The notes: a model not told the origin generated them from the sequence alone. Numbered from the stretch's first letter, positions 1 to 9,448 are shown. The stretch is DNA of 9,448 bases from a virus (IMGVR_UViG_2563366961_000004:1-9448); one strand, 5' to 3'. Numbers and translations: made by a program.

Positions 1-295
1 AAGAACTGTTCACACTGTTCACCTTTCTTTTTTCTCCTTTTATTTCATAGTGATAGGTGGTGAATAATGGGTGAAGGGTGAACATTCGATTCTTCACCTC
101 CGGCATTCTGCCGGTGTGACTTGTGCAGGGGATTAATTTCCCGTGCTGAAATCACACCGGAAGAAAAAAGTTTTTTTTGATTTGATTGTTCACACTGTTC
201 ACCTTTCGTTTTTCTCTTTTAATTTCAGTGTGATAACGGGTGAATATACGGTGAAGGGTGAACAGTGGATTGTTCACCTTCGGGGGATTCAGGGA
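1..295. repeat. crr: crr-like cis replication region: two ~105-bp direct repeats (about 2-104 and 183-287) separated by ~78 bp, each carrying TGTTCACC-type octamer iterons in both orientations
   Basis: Seen directly: copy 1 and copy 2 align along their length (AACTGTTCACACTGTTCACCTTTC...GGTGAAGGGTGAACA...TTCACC). Iterons TGTTCACA/TGTTCACC at 7-23 and 188-204; inverted GGTGAANN copies at 59-84 and 250-265. In P4, as I recall, crr is two ~120-bp direct repeats with alpha-binding TGTTCACC iterons. Sits just downstream of the alpha gene. Confidence 0.65.
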
Positions 296-296
296 T

Positions 297-321
297 AAAA
301 AAAGACCGGCAGATGCCGGTC
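297..321 (-). terminator. Rho-independent terminator downstream of the alpha gene
   Basis: Stem GACCGGC (304-310) / GCCGGTC (315-321), loop AGAT; on the - strand it is followed by a U7 run (A7 at 297-303 on +). Lies 16 nt past the alpha stop codon (338-340). Confidence 0.6.
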
Positions 322-337
322 AGATGAGTCATGATGG

Positions 338-2671
338 TCAGGTTGTTGCAGGGTCGTCACATTTTGGCAGCCAGTCGCCGTAGCTTTCCTCTTTCAGCGT
401 CAGGTTGGTCTGTATCCCCTGTTTGGTATGGCGCTTCTCGTAATTCAGTCCGTATTCCTTCAGCATCACCGGCAGCCCCAGCCCGAACATTTTCAGACTG
501 AGTACATTCCGGTAGCCGTTTGCCTCCATGTAGGCCAGATAGGCGTGATAGAGGTATTTACGGTAATTACGCGGGATGATACTGGCGTTCCCCATATACA
601 TGCCGCTGGTCTGCGGCAGGGTTTCCAGATAGCCGATAAAATCAAACGTCGGGTCGGCATCCCGTTTGATGTTCAGTGCCTCGTCTGAGTTCTGCTGGGA
701 CTGAAGCAGTGACCGGGCGAGCATCGGGTCGCTGAACTTCTGCATCAGGTGACGCACGATGACCGCCAGCTCGCGGGTGATTTTGTCCTTAAGCTGCGGG
801 TCGCGCTCCTGCGGGGCTATCTGTTCCGGGAAGTGAATAATCACCCGCCGGCGTGACACGCCGCCGCTGCGGTCGGTGAAGCGCATCGGGTTATTGTTCA
901 CGGCCAGAATCACCGCCGGGATGTGCGTGGAGTACGCATCCCGGTATTTCGGGTCAACGGACACTGCATCGCCGCCGGTGATGGCCTTGAGTCCGGCTCC
1001 GTCGCCGCTCCATTTTTCCTGGTCCGGCAGGCGTATCAGTGAGAAGCCAGTTAACGCGGCACGTTCACGCGGGGATTCCAGCGTCTCGATGGTGGCCGAC
1101 GTGGCGTTATCCTCACCGGCCAGCAGGGTGGCGATTTCGGCCATGATACTTTTGCCGCTGCCGCCGGGACCGGTCACCTCCAGAAAGAGCTGCCAGTCGT
1201 AGCGGTTTGCCAGCACCATAAACAGTGCGGCCAGAATCACGTCGCGTTTTTCCGCACGGCCACCGGCGGCACGGTCAAGCCAGCGCCAGAACGCGGGGGC
1301 GTGGGTCTCCAGCGTTTCACCGTCCACCGGCGGGGTGAAATCCACATCGCACAGGGTGCGCATCCAGTGTGACGGACTGTGCGGATGGAACGTGCCGTTC
1401 TGCGTGTCGAGCACGCCGTTACGAAAGCCAATCAGGCGGCGGGAGGGGGCTTCCTGCTGCGGAATAATCAGTTTCAGGGTGTCCACCACGGAGGCCACCT
1501 TCCCGGAGGAGAACGGCGCGCGCAGACGCTGAAACAGCCCGGCCACATCCCGGGCAAAGTCCTGTGGCGGCAGCACCTTCCAGACACCATTTTCATAGCG
1601 GGACAGAAGCTGGCCGTTGGCATCGACCGCGAGCGCCTCGCCGTAATGCTCATAGATACGCATGGCCTTTTCGCTGGTACTCATGGCGGAAAACTCTGCT
1701 TCGCTCATGGTGTCGAACGGGCTTTCAGCCGGTGGCCGGATGGCATCGTAAATGGCCTTACGGGTGGCCTCCCCGCCGTACTGCGTGAAGGCATCATTCC
1801 AGTCACCGAAGACCGGCGGCAGGGCAACAACGCCCTCACACGCATCTGCGGCTGCGGCGGCTTTTTTCTGGCCGTCACCGCTGAGGTCACGGTCTGCGGC
1901 AAGGACAATCTGACAGGCCGGATGCTTCTGCCGGGCAAGGCTGGCCAGAGAAAGGAGGTTCACGGAAGAAAGCGCCACCATCACCGTTTCACCGGTCAGG
2001 TGATGCACGGTAAGTGCGGTCGCGTATCCCTCCGCTATCCACAGACGTTTTCCGGCCTGATTCTGTCCTTCAAGGGTGTGACAGGTGCCCCTGACCTGTC
2101 CGCCTTTCAGGGTGCGCTTACGGCCGTCAGCACTGATTAACTGAAGGTTAACCAGTTCGCCGCTGTCGTCATACAGTGGCACCACAAGGTCACCGGCGCG
2201 CCAGCTCACGCCACCGGCTCTGTGTGTGCCGGTCAGCATCCGGCATTCCCGGCCGGGAAAGCCCTTGCGGGTCAGGTAGGCGTTACCGGTTCCGGGACGG
2301 GTTTTTGCCATCAGGGTTTGTGCCAGTGCGGCGGCGTTCTTCCGGGCAGCGTCTGTTTCAGCAACGGCGGCGGCCGTCACTGCCGGGTCAGCCGGGGGCA
2401 GGCTGCCGGTCACGGCAGCCACCTTTGCGGCCGCGTCGGACGGAGAGACACCAAACACCTTTCCAACCAGTTTCAGGCCGTCACCGGCACCACACTGATT
2501 GCAGTACCAGGTGCCGCGCCCCTCCCTGTCATCAAAACGGAAGCGGTCACTCCCGCCACAGACCGGACAGGGCTGATGACGGTTTTTCAGCACCTGAATC
2601 CCCAGCGCCGGGAGAATACGCGGCCAGTGGCCGAGCGCATGGCTGACGGTGGCGGTTACGTTCATTTTCAT
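338..2671 (-). CDS. alpha: P4 alpha-type replication protein (primase-helicase with C-terminal origin-binding region), 777 aa
   Basis: 777-aa ORF, the length I recall for P4 alpha. N-terminal zinc ribbon CPVCGGSDRFRFDD...WYCNQCG; primase motif WIAEGYATA; Walker A VTGPGGSGKS in the helicase part. SD GGAGAA 7 nt upstream of ATG at 2671. Iteron clusters that alpha-type proteins bind occur at 1-295 and 5011-5114. Confidence 0.93.
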   Translation of the reverse strand: MKMNVTATVSHALGHWPRILPALGIQVLKNRHQPCPVCGGSDRFRFDDREGRGTWYCNQCGAGDGLKLVGKVFGVSPSDAAAKVAAVTGSLPPADPAVTAAAVAETDAARKNAAALAQTLMAKTRPGTGNAYLTRKGFPGRECRMLTGTHRAGGVSWRAGDLVVPLYDDSGELVNLQLISADGRKRTLKGGQVRGTCHTLEGQNQAGKRLWIAEGYATALTVHHLTGETVMVALSSVNLLSLASLARQKHPACQIVLAADRDLSGDGQKKAAAAADACEGVVALPPVFGDWNDAFTQYGGEATRKAIYDAIRPPAESPFDTMSEAEFSAMSTSEKAMRIYEHYGEALAVDANGQLLSRYENGVWKVLPPQDFARDVAGLFQRLRAPFSSGKVASVVDTLKLIIPQQEAPSRRLIGFRNGVLDTQNGTFHPHSPSHWMRTLCDVDFTPPVDGETLETHAPAFWRWLDRAAGGRAEKRDVILAALFMVLANRYDWQLFLEVTGPGGSGKSIMAEIATLLAGEDNATSATIETLESPRERAALTGFSLIRLPDQEKWSGDGAGLKAITGGDAVSVDPKYRDAYSTHIPAVILAVNNNPMRFTDRSGGVSRRRVIIHFPEQIAPQERDPQLKDKITRELAVIVRHLMQKFSDPMLARSLLQSQQNSDEALNIKRDADPTFDFIGYLETLPQTSGMYMGNASIIPRNYRKYLYHAYLAYMEANGYRNVLSLKMFGLGLPVMLKEYGLNYEKRHTKQGIQTNLTLKEESYGDWLPKCDDPATT

Positions 2672-2685
2672 GGTGTTGTTCTCCT

Positions 2686-3006
2686 TCAGTGCAGTACCGG
2701 CGCTTTTATGTGACGGGCACAGAGTTCATCCATCACAACCAGCCCGAGAAAGGACAGCGACGGCGCGGCCTTCAGGGGGCCGGATTCCATTAAATCTTCC
2801 AGCAGGGCACAGGCTATCTGACGCCCTTTTTCCTCACCGTGCTGGCGCAGATAAAAGCCTTCCAGCTCAGCGGCGATGGCCGCCTCCAGTGACTCAAGGG
2901 TGAGATGCGGGTAGCGGTGCTGACGTTCGCACACGGTCAGCCAGGCACAGGCGACAGCGCGACGGTAAAGGGCAGCACGTAAGACGGGCGGTAAGGGTGT
3001 TTTCAT
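2686..3006 (-). CDS. Hypothetical protein, 106 aa, immediately upstream of alpha in the left operon
   Basis: ORF with strong SD (GGGAGGAAA) upstream of ATG at 3006; ends 14 nt before the alpha start. Protein-like composition. Function not recognisable from sequence. Confidence 0.7.
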
Positions 3007-3141
3007 TTGTTTTCCTCCCTGTGACAGATGACTGCATTCCGTGCCGGTTGCATTAACTGATAAGGCATATCTGCGTCTCCTGAAGACGTGCGTATCCCTG
3101 CGCGAATACGCACATTTAATTTTTCGGGTGTCGTTTTTTAA

Positions 3142-3597
3142 TTACAGATAATTGCGGTAACTGTTATCCGGGGTGATTTCCGGGTCAGGCTCCGTGCGGG
3201 GAATTTCCCGCCATTCCCGCGCCACCGGTGCCGCCCGGCTGACCGGAACAGGGGCCTGCGGGTAAATATCCAGATATTTCTCCCGCCATTTCTGTAATTC
3301 CGGGTCTCCGGCCATTTCTTTCAGTACCGCATGCCGGTTTACGGGGCTGCGTTTAAACAGGTCAGGACGGTCACAGGTAAATTCCCGCAGAAAACGCCCC
3401 AGCGGGATGTCTGTGGTGCGCCCGTCAGCGAGGATACGCACAAGGATACTGAATTTACGGCGGTACGGGTTCCAGACAATGTCCGGGCAGCGGTACGGCA
3501 TTTCCCACGGAATACCGTCTTCCAGAATGCCGACCACGGCCACATCGGGAAAACCGGCAGAACGGTAAATCTCACCGGGCTGGGGAAAATCAAACAT
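3142..3597 (-). CDS. Hypothetical protein, 151 aa, left operon (size matches my recollection of a P4 'orf151')
   Basis: ORF whose ATG (3597-3595) overlaps the stop of the upstream 95-aa ORF in the sequence ATGTTTGA, consistent with translational coupling. No catalytic motif recognised. Confidence 0.75.
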   Translation of the reverse strand: MFDFPQPGEIYRSAGFPDVAVVGILEDGIPWEMPYRCPDIVWNPYRRKFSILVRILADGRTTDIPLGRFLREFTCDRPDLFKRSPVNRHAVLKEMAGDPELQKWREKYLDIYPQAPVPVSRAAPVAREWREIPRTEPDPEITPDNSYRNYL

Positions 3598-3877
3598 GCG
3601 TCTTGTCTCCCCGGTCTTTCTGCTGGGCGAGAAAATCGCGGCACAGGCCTTTGGCTTTCAGCTCATTCAGCACAAAATCAATATCTTCATTCAGGTAGCT
3701 GAAAATATGCGGAATGTAGAGCTGATGCAGGCCGGAGAGTTCACGGTGAATCAAATCACCCCCAACAAACTGGGATACGGCGCTGGCGCGGTTGAGCTTA
3801 TGGTAAGCCTCAATGCTGAGGTGTTCACGGGCGTCATGACGCGCTGAGACGGTCTGAGGGGCTTTTTTATTACGCAC
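3590..3877 (-). CDS. Small protein, 95 aa if started at GTG 3877; positional candidate for a P4 epsilon-like helper-derepression protein
   Basis: SD GGAGGT 5 nt upstream of GTG at 3877-3875; this start overlaps the stop of the upstream 65-aa ORF (GTGCGTAA). The longer 147-aa reading from ATG 4033 adds a Cys/Pro/Ser-rich, non-protein-like N-terminus and is disfavoured. Assignment as epsilon rests on position and size only. Confidence 0.55.
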
Positions 3878-4067
3878 GGGACACCTCCACCACCGGCAGA
3901 CGGGCAGCAAGGGAGAGCACATAGTCACGGACAAGGGAACGGCGGGCACTGCGTTCATCACCGGCGACGGTGCGAAGCATGCAGATACGGGGATGACGGT
4001 CTGCGCGACGGACAGCCGCAAACACAAAGACAAATTCAGGGTGTGAAGGGGTAAGGGTTGTAGCCAT
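3870..4067 (-). CDS. Small hypothetical protein, 65 aa, first translated ORF after the immunity leader (a kil-like position in P4 terms)
   Basis: ATG at 4067-4065 preceded by GGAGG with 8-nt spacing; it is the C-terminal part of a longer artefactual 214-aa ORF. Stop overlaps the GTG start of the next ORF. Function unknown. Confidence 0.4.
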
Positions 4068-4097
4068 GATGGCAGCCTCCGTTAGATAGCAGGTTAC

Positions 4098-4385
4098 GCT
4101 ATCGCCGGAGTTTCCACGCTCGATGGCGATAGCCCAGACGGGGGTGGAAATACCGGCTCTAACGGATACCGGCCAGCCCGGAGGCTGCCCCGCCTGAGCT
4201 ACCATTGACTCTGCGGCATAATGAGCGGACGCGGGCAGGATGCACGGAGTTCCATCTGCTCGACTGACCACACACCACACCATAATCTGGCGCTCTGTGG
4301 CGTTGATTGCGACACAAAAAAAGACGCATGGCGCGTCATATGTCGCCGTTAGATTGCTCGGGTTTCCACGCCCGGCTGCCGATTT
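4098..4385 (-). promoter_or_regulatory. P4-type immunity/leader region: two GCGUGGAAAC boxes (RNA sense) flanking one complementary UUUCCAC box; candidate CI-like small RNA and seqA/seqB/seqC-like architecture
   Basis: Seen directly: GTTTCCACGC on + at 4110-4119 and 4362-4371; complement GTGGAAA at 4144-4150; box 4110-4119 lies in the loop of a 9-bp hairpin (GCTATCGCC 4098-4106 / GGCGATAGC 4125-4133). In P4, immunity is an RNA (CI) whose seqB pairs with seqA and seqC on the nascent leader. Exact RNA ends cannot be set from sequence. Confidence 0.4.
4316..4337 (-). terminator. Intrinsic terminator inside the leftward leader, between the promoter-proximal box and the complementary box
   Basis: Stem GACGC (4323-4327) / GCGTC (4333-4337), loop ATGGC; followed on the - strand by U7 (A7 at 4316-4322 on +). 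Confidence 0.5.
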
Positions 4386-4400
4386 TGCGACAGCGGAAAA

Positions 4401-4430
4401 ACTATATCCGCAAATGCCGGAAAAAGGCAA
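4401..4430 (-). promoter_or_regulatory. Candidate sigma70 promoter for the leftward leader/operon (PLE-like)
   Basis: On the - strand: TTGCCT (-35; + coordinates 4430-4425), 18-bp spacer, TATAGT (-10; 4406-4401). Located between the vis stop (4466) and the first GCGUGGAAAC box. Hexamer matching only. Confidence 0.35.
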
Positions 4431-4465
4431 GCCAGAAAAAGGGACTTTTTGCAGAACAGGCATCA

Positions 4466-4732
4466 TCATGCGTCGTACCCCCGTTTGCGTCCGGCAATGC
4501 GGCCGGCCATCCATGCGGTGACTTCAGAGTGCAGCCAGGCCACATTTTTACCGCCAAGACTCACCTGCGGCGGAAATTCCCCCTTACGGATGAGTTCGTA
4601 GATGGTCGAGCGTGACAGGCCGCACAGGTGCATCACTTCCGGAAGACGTAAAAAACGCTCCTGTGTGATGTCCGGCAGCGGCATCAGTGGCGTCACAGGG
4701 GCGGGAGACGGGGAAGAAAAAACAGCTTGCAT
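4466..4732 (-). CDS. vis: AlpA/Vis-family small DNA-binding regulator/excisionase, 88 aa
   Basis: Core [50 protein letters not shown] is the characteristic AlpA-family helix-turn-helix region. SD GAGGT 6 nt upstream of ATG 4732. An internal start at Met17 (72 aa) cannot be excluded. Confidence 0.8.
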
Positions 4733-4834
4733 CGGGCTACCTCGTTAATGTCCATACAGCACCGGATAAGTCCGTCCGGCTTCGGGTAGCGCTTTATTTT
4801 GTGAATATTTTCGGCAGACGCAACAGGGGGGATT

Positions 4835-4852
4835 TGTTCCGGCAGCCTTACA
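4835..4852. promoter_or_regulatory. TGT-N12-ACA dyad, candidate Delta/Ogr activator site of a leftward late promoter (PLL-like) upstream of vis
   Basis: TGTTCCGGCAGCCTTACA fits the TGT-N12-ACA dyad that P2/P4 late promoters carry near -55. Lies about 100 bp upstream of the vis start on the - strand. Confidence 0.35.
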
Positions 4853-5010
4853 ATGGCTGTGCATTTTTTGTACATCAGCGCCAGATAGCTTTAAAACGCT
4901 CTGGAAGGAGCTGGAAAAAATTATAGTGAAATACAAATTGTTTTTTCTTATTTATTTCAGTGAATTAATAAAAATAAAAAGTAATAAACAGCACAAAAAG
5001 CCCATCAACG

Positions 5011-5114
5011 GGTGAACAGTGGTGAACAGACGGTGAACAGTCATTACTGCGATTGTTCACCCTTTAACTTACTGTATTACTTATCTTTTTTCTTATTGTG
5101 AACAGAGGTGAACA
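5011..5114. repeat. ori: ori-like iteron cluster: six TGTTCACC-type octamers next to an AT-rich block (about 4921-4990)
   Basis: GGTGAACA at 5011-5018, 5021-5028, 5032-5039; inverted TGTTCACC at 5054-5061; TGTGAACA at 5097-5104; GGTGAACA at 5107-5114. Same octamer as in the 1-295 repeats. Located between the divergent vis and sid genes. P4 ori is recalled to contain alpha-binding iterons. Confidence 0.65.
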
Positions 5115-5195
5115 GTAAAATATAAAAAAAAACAAACAGTAAGCCGGTTTTTCCTGCGACCTTTTCCTGGCTTGCCGGTCTGAGGATGAGTCTCC

Positions 5196-5213
5196 TGTGT
5201 CAGGGCTGGCACA
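5196..5213 (+). promoter_or_regulatory. TGT-N12-ACA dyad, candidate Delta/Ogr-dependent late promoter for sid-delta-psu (Psid-like)
   Basis: TGTGTCAGGGCTGGCACA at 5196-5213; centre about 80 bp upstream of the sid ATG (5286), compatible with an activator site near -55 and a short leader. Confidence 0.4.
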
Positions 5214-5285
5214 TCTGCAATGCGTCGTGTTGTTGTCCGGTGTACGTCACAATTTTCTTAACCTGAAGTGACGAGGAACCGGAAA

Positions 5286-6020
5286 ATGTCTGACAACACC
5301 ATCCCTGAATATCTGCAACCCGCGCTGGCACAACTGGAAAAGGCCAGAGCCGCCCATCTTGAGAACGCCCGCCTGATGGATGAGACCGTCACGGCCATTG
5401 AACGGGCAGAGCAGGAAAAAAATGCGCTGGCGCAGGCCGACGGAAACGACGCTGACGACTGGCGCACGGCCTTTCGTGCAGCCGGTGGTGTCCTGAGCGA
5501 TGAGCTGAAACAGCGCCACATTGAGCGCGTGGCACGCCGGGAGCTGGTACAGGAATATGACAATCTGGCCGTGGTGCTGAATTTTGAACGCGAACGCCTG
5601 AAAGGGGCGTGTGACAGCACGGCCACCGCCTACCGGAAGGCACATCATCACCTTCTGAGTCTGTATGCAGAGCATGAGCTGGAACACGCCCTGAATGAAA
5701 CCTGTGAGGCGCTTGTCCGGGCAATGCATCTGAGCATCCTGGTACAGGAAAATCCGCTCGCCAACACCACCGGCCATCAGGGCTACATCGCACCGGAAAA
5801 GGCTGTCATGCAGCAGGTGAAATCATCGCTGGAACAGAAAATAAAACAGATGCAAATCAGCCTCAGCGGTGAGCCGGTTCTCCGGCTGACCGGACTGTCA
5901 GCGGCAACACTCCCGCACATGGATTATGAGGTGGCAGGCACACCGGCACAGCGCAAGGTGTGGCAGGACAAAATAGACCAGCAGGGAGCAGAGCTTAAGG
6001 CCAGAGGACTGCTGTCATGA
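5286..6020 (+). CDS. sid: Sid, capsid size-determination (external scaffold) protein, 244 aa
   Basis: Protein begins MSDNTIPEYLQPALAQLEKARAAHLENARL, which I recognise as P4 Sid. ATG 5286 has SD GAGGAA 7 nt upstream; the ORF-track start at 5268 is an in-frame GTG 18 nt upstream and less likely. Stop overlaps the delta start (ATGA at 6017-6020). Confidence 0.9.
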   Translation: MSDNTIPEYLQPALAQLEKARAAHLENARLMDETVTAIERAEQEKNALAQADGNDADDWRTAFRAAGGVLSDELKQRHIERVARRELVQEYDNLAVVLNFERERLKGACDSTATAYRKAHHHLLSLYAEHELEHALNETCEALVRAMHLSILVQENPLANTTGHQGYIAPEKAVMQQVKSSLEQKIKQMQISLSGEPVLRLTGLSAATLPHMDYEVAGTPAQRKVWQDKIDQQGAELKARGLLS

Positions 6021-6517
6021 TTTACTGCCCGTCGTGTGGACATGTTGCTCACACCCGTCGCGCACATTTCATGGACGATGGCACCAAGATAATGATTGCA
6101 CAGTGCCGGAATATTTATTGCTCTGCGACATTTGAAGCGAGTGAAAGCTTTTTCTCTGACTGTAAAGATTCAGGAATGGAATACATTTCAGGCAAACAGA
6201 GATACCGCGATTCACTGACTTCTGCCTCCGGCAGTATGAAACGCCCGAAAAGAATGCTTGTTACCGGATATTGTTGTCGGAGATGTAAAGGCCTTGCACT
6301 GTCAAGAACATCGCGGCGTCTGTCTCAGGAAGTCACCGAACGTTTTTATGTGTGCACGGAGCCGGGCTGTGGTCTGGTGTTTAAAACGCTTCAGACCATC
6401 AACCGCTTCATTGTCCGCCCGGTCACGCCGGACGAACTGGCAGAACGCCTGCATGAAAAACAGGAACTGCCGCCAGTACGGTTAAAAACACAATCATATT
6501 CGCTGCGTCTGGAATGA
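6017..6517 (+). CDS. delta: Delta, late-gene transcriptional activator (tandem Ogr-like zinc-finger domains), 166 aa
   Basis: Two Cys4 modules (CPSCGH...CRNIYC and CCRRCK...CTEPGC); 166 aa as I recall for P4 Delta; translationally coupled to sid. Confidence 0.9.
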   Translation: MIYCPSCGHVAHTRRAHFMDDGTKIMIAQCRNIYCSATFEASESFFSDCKDSGMEYISGKQRYRDSLTSASGSMKRPKRMLVTGYCCRRCKGLALSRTSRRLSQEVTERFYVCTEPGCGLVFKTLQTINRFIVRPVTPDELAERLHEKQELPPVRLKTQSYSLRLE

Positions 6518-6590
6518 GGGCTGCCGGTTAACCCCGGCCGTCGCCGCACACCGTATTTTTATTCTTCAGCATGATGAGAAAGAGATAACG

Positions 6591-7163
6591 ATGGAAAGCA
6601 CAGCCTTACAGCAGGCCTTTGACACCTGTCAGAATAACAAAGCAGCATGGCTGCAACGCAAAAATGAGCTGGCTGCGGCCGAACAGGAATATCTGCGGCT
6701 TCTGTCAGGAGAAGGCAGAAACGTCAGTCGCCTGGACGAATTACGCAATATTATCGAAGTCAGAAAATGGCAGGTGAATCAGGCCGCCGGTCGTTATATT
6801 CGTTCGCATGAAGCCGTTCAGCACATCAGCATCCGCGACCGGCTGAATGATTTTATGCTGCAGCACGGCACAGCACTGGCGGCCGCACTGGCACCGGAGC
6901 TGATGGGCTACAGTGAGCTGACGGCCATTGCCCGAAACTGTGCCATACAGCGTGCCACAGATGCCCTGCGTGAAGCCCTCCTGTCCTGGCTTGCGAAGGG
7001 TGAAAAAATTAATTATTCCGCACAGGATAGCGACATTTTAACGACCATCGGATTCAGGCCTGACGCGGCTTCGGTGGATGACAGCCGTGAAAAATTCACC
7101 CCTGCGCAGAACATGATTTTTTCGCGTAAAAGTGCGCAACTGGTATCACATCAGTCTGTGTAA
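6591..7163 (+). CDS. psu: Psu, polarity suppression / capsid decoration protein, 190 aa
   Basis: 190-aa ORF beginning MESTALQQAFDT, in the sid-delta-psu order typical of P4; followed by a terminator hairpin and then cos. Confidence 0.9.
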   Translation: MESTALQQAFDTCQNNKAAWLQRKNELAAAEQEYLRLLSGEGRNVSRLDELRNIIEVRKWQVNQAAGRYIRSHEAVQHISIRDRLNDFMLQHGTALAAALAPELMGYSELTAIARNCAIQRATDALREALLSWLAKGEKINYSAQDSDILTTIGFRPDAASVDDSREKFTPAQNMIFSRKSAQLVSHQSV

Positions 7164-7199
7164 AACTCCCCGAAAATCCGCCCGTTTTTACTGAAAAAA

Positions 7200-7232
7200 G
7201 CCATGCATCGATAAGGTGCATGGCTTTGCATG
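7200..7232. terminator. Bidirectional intrinsic terminator between the convergent psu (+) and cargo NTPase (-) genes
   Basis: Stem GCCATGCA (7200-7207) / TGCATGGC (7217-7224), loop TCGATAAGG; flanked by AAAAAA on the 5' side (U6 for the - strand) and TTTGCATGCGTTTT on the 3' side. Confidence 0.55.
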
Positions 7233-7327
7233 CGTTTTCCTGCCTCATTTTCTGTAAACCGTGCCATTCCCGGCGCGGTCTGAGCGTGTCAGTACAACTG
7301 CATTAAAACCGCCCCGCAAAGCGGGCG

Positions 7328-7346
7328 GGCGAGGCGGGGAAAGCAC
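7328..7346. other. cos: cos site core: 19-nt P2/P4 cohesive-end sequence
   Basis: Exact GGCGAGGCGGGGAAAGCAC at 7328-7346, the cohesive-end sequence I recall for P2 and P4. Preceded by a GC-rich dyad (CCCGCAAAGCGGG, about 7313-7325). In P4 cos lies directly after psu, as here. Confidence 0.8.
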
Positions 7347-7380
7347 TGCGCGCAGTATAAGAATTAAATAGGTATGGATT

Positions 7381-9075
7381 TTAAAATCCATCAAGTAGCT
7401 GATTGATACCATTGCTCTCATCACAATTTATTTGCTCTAACTCAAATAAAGCACTGTCGTACTTTATTTGGGGAGTGTTTTCAAATGACAATAAAGATTC
7501 GATTAGTCTTATTTCTTTATCTTTATTTATGTCTTTAAGTGAGTCTAAAGTTAAATTGAATTTAACTTCGGGTTGTTTTCCTACTTCCATCATGATATTT
7601 GACTCCAACTCTGGATCAGTATTGAAGAATCGATGTGTCTTATGGAAATAACTAGGTTTTCTTGATTTTAAAATACTTAGTATATCCGACTTGATAGTGC
7701 TTTCCCGTGCTATCACAAGCCAATGGTTGGCAACCCCTGTGATGGTGGTAATGATGTGGGAGCCATTTTCACTTAGTTCATTAAAGGCTCTTAAGTCACC
7801 CTTGAAAAAATCATTTAGCAACTCATTTTCTTTATCTTTATCAAAAAGGTAAATTATTGAATTGCCGGCTAATGATATTTCAGCCTTGGTTTTTATAGTA
7901 TCGCAATTAAATTGCGCGGTCTCATTTTTTAATTCTTCGTAAGATGATTTTAAGTCTAAAAGCAAGCATTTTATTATACTTGATCTGAAAGATGAGTAAT
8001 CAATATCAGCACAAAGTGAAAATAAATTTCTGTGACGAATGGATTCAGGGCTGTAATATAGCTTTGTTAATATTTCTTTTTGGCGTTCTTTTGTGTCACG
8101 ACAGATAAACATAGCTGCAAAATATTCCATTAATGATTTGTGTGACCAACGAATAATAGCGCCTTCTTTGACAAATAATGGAACGGTTTCAATTAAGTCC
8201 TGAATAAAAAGAGATGGTGAAGTTGATATTCCGGGAATTTTTGAAATGATATTTTGCAATGTTATTTGCAGATCGTCTTTCGTAAACTCAATTTTACCTC
8301 CGTCTTTCAAACACCAAAAACCTAATCTCCTTAAGACCTGATGGAAGTCAGTGGAGTCTAGCTTAGAAAATTTTTCTCTAACATAACCAAGTTCTTTAGT
8401 TAAATCATGAGACTCATACAAAGCGTCAAATACTTGGCTATAAAATAACTCTCTTTTTCTTGGTATTATCGGTTTGAATTTATATGCACAAAATAATAAT
8501 GAAACATAAAGAGGTGTGGATAAAAATTCATTTAGATTATGACCATTCTCCAGTCGTAATCCTTTAATTAATTGAGATGAAATAGGGCCACGTCCATCAT
8601 ATCGACGTAATAGATCATACGCTTGATTCGTTTCTAATGGGTTGATTTTAAATCTTGAGAAACCATGTAGTTCTGATAAGAAATTATCATGACGAGAAGT
8701 TATAATTATTTTGCTTTCTGAGAAATTATTAGCAAAGGTACTTAGTAAATTTACGATCTTGGATTTGAGTTGTTGTGGGATTTCATCTATGCCATCGAAA
8801 AGATAAATAAAAGGGATTTTTTTGAGGCAGTTGTCTGAAATGTCTTCTCCTAAACCAAGTTGATGTTTCACCTGTAGCGCAAAATCATAATCTTTAGCAC
8901 GTCGTAATTCAATGTATATTGGAATGTATTCCTTATTAGCGATGCAATCTAAAGCAATTCTTTTCATTAGGGTGGACTTACCCATTCCTGCTGAGTCAGT
9001 GATTAATATATGATTGAAATTATCTAATAAATCTGCATTGTCTTTTATTAGGCATGTGTATGGTTTTTTTTTCAT
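7381..9075 (-). CDS. NACHT-type STAND NTPase (564 aa as drawn) with a ~230-aa C-terminal region of unknown fold; candidate anti-phage defence protein
   Basis: Walker A ITDSAGMGKST (aa 24-34); Walker B of the NACHT hhhhDGxDE type (IYLFDGIDEI); sensor-1-like IIITSR. AT-rich, unlike the P4-like core. The ATG sits directly on an A9 run and has no SD, and the upstream ORF joins it with a 1-nt shift, so this may be the downstream part of one larger gene. Confidence 0.8.
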   Translation of the reverse strand: MKKKPYTCLIKDNADLLDNFNHILITDSAGMGKSTLMKRIALDCIANKEYIPIYIELRRAKDYDFALQVKHQLGLGEDISDNCLKKIPFIYLFDGIDEIPQQLKSKIVNLLSTFANNFSESKIIITSRHDNFLSELHGFSRFKINPLETNQAYDLLRRYDGRGPISSQLIKGLRLENGHNLNEFLSTPLYVSLLFCAYKFKPIIPRKRELFYSQVFDALYESHDLTKELGYVREKFSKLDSTDFHQVLRRLGFWCLKDGGKIEFTKDDLQITLQNIISKIPGISTSPSLFIQDLIETVPLFVKEGAIIRWSHKSLMEYFAAMFICRDTKERQKEILTKLYYSPESIRHRNLFSLCADIDYSSFRSSIIKCLLLDLKSSYEELKNETAQFNCDTIKTKAEISLAGNSIIYLFDKDKENELLNDFFKGDLRAFNELSENGSHIITTITGVANHWLVIARESTIKSDILSILKSRKPSYFHKTHRFFNTDPELESNIMMEVGKQPEVKFNLTLDSLKDINKDKEIRLIESLLSFENTPQIKYDSALFELEQINCDESNGINQLLDGF

Positions 9076-9340
9076 TATCGTAATAAATGCTCATTGGCTC
9101 ATAAATATCTAGAAGCTCTACTGGAGTATTTTGAAAAGCTAAGGTATTCACAAGGGAGCATTGCCCTTTCACATTTGATAGGAAACGTTCAAGATTTTTA
9201 TTCAAGAAGCGTGCTGCATGTACATCTATTAAATAATTACGAACACTACTTTCTATGATAGGTAATATTTTATTCTTAATAACCTCCTTTGCCCATGGAA
9301 GGGATGCAGAGACTAATACATCAAGAGATACTGGTTGCAT
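9020..9340 (-). CDS. 106-aa ORF encoding a probable N-terminal module (~92 aa before the A9 tract) of the NACHT protein; separate frame, overlapping the NTPase ORF by 56 nt
   Basis: ATG at 9340 with a weak AAGG SD. Reads through the A9 tract as ...DNEKKT... and stops 18 codons later. Deleting one A gives an in-frame junction ...YYDNEKK-PYTCLIKDNADLL... with the NTPase. No known effector motif recognised. Confidence 0.5.
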   Translation of the reverse strand: MQPVSLDVLVSASLPWAKEVIKNKILPIIESSVRNYLIDVHAARFLNKNLERFLSNVKGQCSLVNTLAFQNTPVELLDIYEPMSIYYDNEKKTIHMPNKRQCRFIR

Positions 9341-9448
9341 GAATTATACCTTATTTTGGTAATGACTCCAACTTATTGATAGTGTTTTATGTTCAGATAA
9401 TGCCCGATGACTTTGTCATGCAGCTCCACCGATTTTGAGAACGACAGC

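Follow-up and report, generated by a model that had tools for sequence, protein, structure and literature searches.

Positions 4098-4430 of the 9,448 nucleotides analysed here (a viral sequence, IMGVR_UViG_2563366961_000004:1-9448, hereafter the window) very probably represent, read on the minus strand, an immunity switch that operates through a CI RNA and belongs to a P4-type satellite prophage. Judged by its alignment, the region is the orthologue of the immunity region of satellite phage P4. The mechanism is a known one and the architecture is P4's own; what is new is the recognition sequence of both pairing modules. There is little mechanistic news, since the workings of the P4 CI RNA have been known from the 1990s on and Rfam already includes the RNA families concerned.

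Regarding the element as a whole, window positions 1-7327 correspond to P4 4308-11624 in a single collinear megablast piece with 97.5% identity, the remainder (7328-9448) being non-P4. Across the collinear part the gene order is alpha primase, orf106, orf151, epsilon, kil/eta, vis, sid, delta, psu and the cos end, i.e., the collinear alpha to psu gene set by which a P4-type satellite is recognized. Pfam matches in the window comprise primase, DUF5375, AlpA, Ogr/Delta and Psu. Closer to the immunity region, 3900-4800 is 95.7% identical to P4, and the 441 nt from 4040 to 4480 differ from it by 33 substitutions and 0 indels. The spacing, which the original prediction suspected might differ from that of P4, is therefore the same; the box positions coincide, and the genes of the orthologous locus follow the shared order vis, eta/kil, epsilon, orf151, orf106, alpha. 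A P4-like match was found in 1253 of 5426 complete E. coli genomes (1554 places in all), 875 of these covering at least 80% of the region; P4-like satellites, which bear defence cargo, are present in roughly one in four of the complete E. coli genomes searched. E. coli SCU-172 is 100% identical to the window over 4040-4480.

A PLE-type constitutive promoter is predicted at 4401-4430 (-), with a -35 hexamer TTGCCT (4430-4425), an 18-nt spacer and a -10 hexamer TATAGT (4406-4401). It had been proposed from inspection and was recovered by a promoter scan as the sole promoter-like site in 3700-5300. Both hexamers are identical to those of P4, and the -10 hexamer is labelled 'consensus -10' in the P4 record X02534 (L001 695-700, corresponding to window 4406-4401). 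Downstream, a leader or seqA RNA, resembling the short IsrK transcript, is delimited at 4317-4394 (-) by the Rfam model isrK RF01394, which is matched over its full length (positions 1-77 of 77, 4394-4317) with 72.5 bits against a gathering threshold of 50. The model c4-a1b1 RF03163, whose span lies within the isrK match, scores 45.8 bits at 4407-4355 (-), i.e., 0.9 bit short of its gathering threshold of 46.7 (E 3e-9). In leader hairpin 1, 4394-4388 pairs with 4381-4375; in leader hairpin 2, 4374-4371 pairs with 4362-4359 and box a1 is held in the loop, after which come box b1 and an intrinsic terminator at 4316-4337 (-). This terminator, which had likewise been foreseen, was confirmed by a terminator scan and consists of a stem GACGC/GCGUC (4337-4323) followed by U7 to 4316; it differs from that of P4 at a single loop base only (4328). 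From its position, and in line with the work of Briani and colleagues in 2000 (reference 47 of PMC4825925), it is probably the t1 of the P4 literature. Among 49 relatives, the leader helices are paired in 99.7%, 81%, and 100%, and the terminator helix is 100% paired with one compensatory pair. Folded alone, the leader has no significant stability (z -0.8) and displays no obvious anti-terminator that CI pairing could remove, and the folds give no structural reason for CI pairing to enhance termination at 4337-4316.

The CI RNA itself can be located at 4122-4209 (-) by the Rfam C4 antisense RNA family RF01695, which includes the P4 CI RNA and is matched over its full length (1-87 of 87, 4209-4122) with 76.2 bits against a gathering threshold of 45 (E 5.9e-14). 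The same span is marked as a dyad symmetry in P4 record X02534 (L001 898-973, corresponding to 4203-4128). A closing stem of 17 bp (4204-4188 with 4143-4127) surrounds hairpin I (4187-4174) and hairpin II (4173-4152), and the minimum free energy fold (-48.1 kcal/mol, z -4.4) equals the family structure and leaves the elements a' and b' unpaired. The 27 pairs of the CI stems are 100% paired in 49 sequences, 3 of them being compensatory, so that the long closing stem around two hairpins that characterizes the C4 family is maintained in relatives. Taken together, the intramolecular helices of CI, leader and terminator are 97.8% paired in the alignment of 49, with 6 compensatory pairs. The CI helices are identical to those of P4, the CI substitutions of the window being limited to the b' loop and the a' linker. 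The resemblance to the seqA/seqB/seqC riboregulator of P4 put forward in the original prediction thus proves stronger than was claimed, given a P4 orthologue with C4 and isrK matches above gathering. The 'variant riboregulator' suggested there holds as to a different recognition sequence, whereas the architecture is that of P4. The P4 CI RNA pairs with seqA and seqC, located up- and downstream of cI, leading to premature termination (PMC4825925), and is an RNase P substrate (PMC5499578). In structural terms the P4 seqA RNA has been described as homologous to IsrK, a C4-like RNA lying downstream (PMC4825925), and IsrK and C4 as structural homologues of seqA and CI (PMC3632133).

Two sets of recognition boxes can be found on the minus strand. 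In set a, box a1 (seqA; GCGUGGAAAC, 4362-4371) and box a2 (seqC; GCGUGGAAAC, 4110-4119) share the core GUGGAAA (4369-4363 and 4117-4111, respectively), which is complementary to box a' (seqB; UUUCCAC, 4144-4150), a box lying unpaired in the linker that leads from hairpin II to the closing stem. These are the two boxes and the complementary box that were first noticed in the sequence, and all of their coordinates (4371-4362, 4119-4110, and TTTCCAC at 4150-4144) are exact, the sequence of box 1, GCGTGGAAAC, being confirmed at 4371-4362 (-). The complementarity of 7-11 bp reported at that time stands for set a; it was incomplete in that a second module, with 8-9 bp per target, had been missed. 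In this set b, UCUAACGG is found at 4353-4346 (box b1, 4346-4353, identified by sequence search and by its pairing with b') and again at 4086-4079, both complementary to box b' (CCGUUAGA, 4158-4165) in the 12-nt loop of CI hairpin II. The downstream copy, box b2 (UCUAACGGA, 4078-4086), pairs with CI 4166-4158 (9 bp) and overlaps the Shine-Dalgarno sequence GGAGG (4080-4076) of the ORF that follows; since the pairing extends over 9 nt (4086-4078), it covers the GGA of the kil Shine-Dalgarno sequence. As in the C4 family, therefore, a' and b' are each complementary to one site upstream and one site downstream of the RNA gene, and the downstream target b2 overlaps the ribosome-binding site of an icd/kil-type ORF.

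Regarding chance occurrence, the exact 10-mer of boxes 1 and 2 is present twice against 0.03 expected, with 0 of 200 shuffles reaching 2, and the motif TCTAACGG (4353-4346 and 4086-4079), together with its complement at 4165-4158, gives 3 matches against 0.17 expected. The bare 7-mer core alone is not significant (3 matches versus 1.5 expected, reached by 33 of 200 shuffles), and box 1 with one mismatch allowed is uninformative (2 matches versus 0.78 expected). Homology and covariation, rather than chance counts, are judged to be the decisive evidence for the boxes.

Box a2 lies in the 18-nt loop of a 9-bp hairpin at 4098-4133 (-), in which 4133-4125 pairs with 4106-4098. This hairpin, which had been predicted, is real: it is 98.9% paired in relatives, with 3 pairs changed on both sides. 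Seven nucleotides of its 5' arm (4133-4127) also belong to the 3' arm of the CI closing stem, which makes the two helices mutually exclusive; once CI is included in the fold, the hairpin is missing from the minimum free energy structure and the CI stem is kept. Two conserved and exclusive helices may point to a conformational step, either in target presentation or in the atypical downstream terminator. The hairpin might correspond to the atypical terminator that P4 is reported to have between cI and its Rho-dependent site.

The RNA elements are embedded in overlapping coding sequences. Upstream of the immunity region, vis/orf88 (4466-4732, -) is an 88-aa ORF for an AlpA-family excisionase/regulator, which matches Pfam Phage_AlpA with 74 bits and aligns with P4 ORF88. 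The vis stop codon is overlapped (ATGA) by the start of eta, an ORF of 199 aa at 3870-4469 (-) that corresponds to a RefSeq CDS of the 99.8%-identical E. coli SCU-172 locus (mapping to 4469-3870), spans PLE, leader and CI RNA, and ends as kil. The latter (3870-4067, -) encodes a 65-aa Icd-like cell-division inhibitor, matching NCBIfam NF033153 phage_ICD_like with 76 bits. With its Shine-Dalgarno sequence GGAGG at 4080-4076, a spacer of 8 nt and an ATG at 4067-4065, kil is the first ORF translated from PLE transcripts, in agreement with the first ORF with a strong Shine-Dalgarno sequence foreseen at this place. In 65 of 67 distinct relatives the eta frame remains open over 354 nt or more ahead of the kil ATG, compared with 0.4% of shuffles. 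Relatives with the eta frame include Kosakonia, Kluyvera, Phytobacter and Mixta elements with indels. Because the frame stays open through promoter, terminator and CI RNA, the same bases are constrained both as structured RNA and as codons. In the published description, the constitutive promoter sits inside eta, Kil being a truncated product translated on read-through; eta itself is translated, in coupling with the alpA homologue, on transcripts from the late promoter, and this translation keeps them from being terminated (PMC10111431).

In RefSeq, 3870-4469 is labelled 'host cell division inhibitor Icd-like protein', with no ncRNA annotated. Pfam Phage_ASH spans residues 37-161 of the ORF, i.e., leader, terminator and CI RNA, and both PHROG 6928 and the P4 RefSeq record carry the label 'transcriptional repressor'. 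Such labels look like legacies of a time when the repressor was not yet recognized as an RNA. This bears on annotation, as the actual repressor is an unannotated RNA in a stretch labelled as protein.

For the study of covariation, 85 loci were collected with Kil and 80 more with a CI-core pattern; a scan of genome contigs with Kil gave 5 loci, the diversity coming mainly from IMG/VR, and the covariation alignment consists of 49 distinct sequences. Across these, pairing in the four intermolecular helices amounts to 99%, with changes on both sides in 12 of the 15 pairs, so that the pairing of both modules is kept by compensatory change at three sites. Considering the upstream targets, a1:a' and b1:b' are together 98.9% paired with 12/15 pairs double-changed, compared with 40-51% paired in slid controls, and their covariation score is 0.670 versus 0.230 in shuffles (reached by 0/500). 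Individually, a1:a' is paired in 99.7% of cells (6/7 pairs change on both sides) and b1:b' in 98.2% (6/8). For the downstream targets, a':a2 and b':b2 are 99.5% paired, again with 12/15 pairs double-changed (score 0.672), a':a2 being 100% paired with 6/7 pairs changed on both sides. In 12 sequences b' has a U opposite G, b1 and b2 keeping the G, a wobble that fits RNA pairing and not a repeated DNA site. Of 146 distinct regions that have full flanks, 144 carry a complement of at least 7 nt to the CI element at a1, 146 at a2, 136 at b1 and 137 at b2, and 103 of the 146 relatives have a 9-nt complement to the CI loop at b2. A lack of conservation of the boxes among related elements had been named as grounds for abandoning the original prediction; the boxes instead vary in concert, bar a few chimeras and degenerate cases.

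Different explanations can be considered for these conserved boxes. It could be supposed that the conserved element is a protein, namely that the ORF ('cI/ash gene product') encodes the repressor and that the boxes are incidental codons. The ORF at 4469-3870 is indeed open, with its frame kept in the relatives as given above, Phage_ASH scores 99.7 bits on residues 37-161, and the PHROG 6928 match and the P4 RefSeq name both read as a repressor. Nevertheless, such a role for the protein is very improbable: constraint on a protein does not predict compensatory variation at the RNA level between sites in opposite orientation and 200-280 nt apart, wobble is tolerated (the b' U opposite G in 12 sequences), and the full-length covariance-model matches support an RNA. 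In P4, nonsense or frameshift mutations in the ORF upstream of kil are reported to leave immunity intact. The literature names the RNA as the immunity factor (PMC4825925) and assigns to eta translation a role in anti-termination (PMC10111431); the ORF, although real, exists alongside the RNA and does not take its place. The box triplets could also be read as DNA operators for a sequence-specific protein such as Vis/AlpA, with one copy inverted. Three motif copies, one of them inverted, would co-vary with a co-evolving binding protein, and a helix-turn-helix protein is encoded directly upstream. This explanation can hardly be credited either, as the a and b modules assort independently (42 combinations) and no second specificity protein is apparent, G-U wobble is confined to the sense expected of RNA pairing, the boxes lie in loops and linkers of conserved RNA helices, the b2 pairing extends to 9 nt into the Shine-Dalgarno sequence, and P4 genetics point to RNA. 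Chance, protein-only and DNA-operator explanations were accordingly rejected.

With the CI RNA retained as the immunity factor, the remaining matter is whether its specificity is still that of P4. Of the 33 differences from P4, 18 fall in the 45 box positions of the 441 (hypergeometric P = 1.6e-11), and all of these are compensatory. Set a reads GUGGAAA/UUUCCAC here versus GUGAGAA/UUCUCAC in P4, and set b UCUAACGG/CCGUUAGA here versus UUCACAGG/CCUGUGAA in P4, so that 2/7 (a) and 4/8 (b) positions differ in each copy. Since both recognition modules differ from P4 in all three copies, the element probably belongs to a separate immunity group and would be heteroimmune to P4. This prediction draws further on P1/P7 ImmI, where minor nucleotide differences suffice for heteroimmunity (PMC6906374). 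For the exposed CI segment, duplexes are predicted at -30 to -32 kcal/mol with cognate targets, against -17 to -22 kcal/mol with P4 targets, intramolecular structure being ignored; sharing of a single module gives -22 to -28 kcal/mol, and sharing of neither gives -11 to -27 kcal/mol, most values falling between -13 and -20. It could be argued that, under the same mechanism, the box differences are functionally neutral and the element and P4 are co-immune: few positions differ, non-cognate duplexes are still appreciable on prediction because flanking GC-rich segments can pair, and mismatched a1/b1 targets are tolerated in some natural elements. Co-immunity is nonetheless unlikely, as all 18 box substitutions are compensated in three copies and the pattern recurs in 42 allele combinations, which argues for selection for matched pairing. 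Regarding the retronphage phiR73, which is P4-like, Sabbattini and colleagues are said to have found in 1996 that it is heteroimmune to P4, its specificity differing through CI and the target boxes. No phiR73 sequence was found in the collections searched.

Beyond the pair formed with P4, heteroimmunity might be a general trait of these satellites. The 153 distinct regions contain 6 a-alleles and 26 b'-loop variants in 42 combinations, the common alleles forming a complete 2 x 4 factorial; the type of the window (a = GUGGAAA, b = UCUAACGG) is represented by 7 of the 153. It is possible, although the suggestion is a tentative one, that P4-like satellites carry a two-module combinatorial RNA 'address'. 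Each module has to be matched at three interleaved sites (a1, b1 ... b', a', a2 ... b2), so a new combination needs several conversion patches or mutations. If the suggestion is true, there would be strong diversifying selection for many mutually heteroimmune satellite lineages, and both modules would be needed for recognition. The allele catalogue could in any case serve as an immunity-typing scheme for P4-like satellites. Some regions depart from the matched pattern: the chimera L075 combines a1 and b1 of one type with CI, a2 and b2 of a second type, the b1 of L061 is foreign, and in L065 and L021 the b boxes are degenerate, b2 having lost 1-2 nt. As the targets in these four mismatch their own CI, not every pairing is indispensable, and chimeras such as L075 and L061 suggest recombination between leader and CI together with some tolerance of a mismatched upstream target. 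Two pairs of P4-like elements residing in the same genome were encountered in IMG/VR (n = 2): L010 and L079 differ in both modules, while L031 and L032 are of the same type and 99.4% identical.

By analogy with the P4 and P1 literature, from which the processing of CI, its action in trans, and the termination and translation steps are taken, the following mechanism can be proposed. The promoter at 4430-4401 would transcribe the minus strand, giving an untranslated leader that holds the CI RNA of ~78-88 nt, which, as in P4, would be cut from the transcript by RNase P, trimmed at its 3' end and accumulate. CI would then act in trans, and possibly in cis, on nascent leaders, exposing b' (hairpin loop) and a' (single-stranded linker) to match a1/b1 upstream and a2/b2 downstream. 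Pairing at a1/b1 would raise termination at the weak terminator 4337-4316, yielding a short IsrK-like RNA and making CI autoregulated, while pairing at a2/b2 would cover the kil Shine-Dalgarno sequence and block kil translation. The untranslated transcript is expected to terminate before epsilon, orf151, orf106 and alpha primase, so that the prophage would not replicate. Transcripts from the upstream late promoter would escape CI control, because eta would be translated through the whole region.

Similar modules can be found in other mobile elements. The C4 RNA of P1/P7, in the immI operon c4 - icd - ant, belongs to the same Rfam family and clan as the CI of the window and shares its logic of two recognition elements and two target pairs (a1/b1, a'/b', a2/b2 layout), with specificity set by few nucleotides (PMC6906374) and a downstream target that overlaps the ribosome-binding site of an Icd-like ORF, as here. 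P1/P7 is however a plasmid prophage in which an antirepressor is controlled, whereas the element in the window is a satellite in which the downstream genes are replication genes (epsilon, alpha). Unlike P1/P7, it also has an intrinsic terminator between a1/b1 and the RNA, and a second promoter from which eta, a long overlapping ORF, is read. The other counterpart is IsrK/STnc1160 of Salmonella Gifsy-1, whose model is the one matched full length by the leader 4394-4317. While IsrK is described as activating translation of a long isoform (orf45-anrP-antQ), the short RNA of the window is proposed to be the product of CI-enhanced termination and is not known to have an activating role. At the DNA level, the segment 4028-4208 (-), which contains the CI RNA and the kil start, is 70-80% identical to N15-like linear-plasmid prophages (phiKO2, PY54, Klebsiella phages) and, also at 70-80%, to P1-like phages (D6, RCS47, JL22), where the counterparts lie beside Icd-like genes or are unannotated. 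Going by these identities, c4-icd appears as a module common to very different mobile elements.

In the non-P4 part of the window, a cargo gene located beside psu (7381-9340, -) encodes a short NACHT NTPase with a SNaCT5 C-terminal domain (Pfam). P4-like satellites carry an anti-phage hotspot between psu and int (PMC9122126), and the cargo site is at the same place. A PADLOC search with the 564-aa cargo ORF gave no convincing match (Avs2, E 0.004). In E. coli SCU-172 (99.8% identical) the cargo gene is one CDS of 652 aa, while in the window it is split into frames of 106 aa and 564 aa by an extra T (T9 at 9064-9072 versus T8), a difference that may reflect a sequencing error, a pseudogene or a slippage switch. 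The last 91 bases of the window (9358-9448) give no alignment with the SCU-172 locus, where the integrase gene ends just past the NACHT gene; the junction or the neighbouring gene differs in the window. Another homopolymer, at 5124-5132, likewise differs in length between the two sequences, with A9 in the window versus A8 in SCU-172. A scan of the plus strand revealed terminator-like hairpins at 4842-4860 and 5032-5061, in the vis-sid intergenic/ori region.
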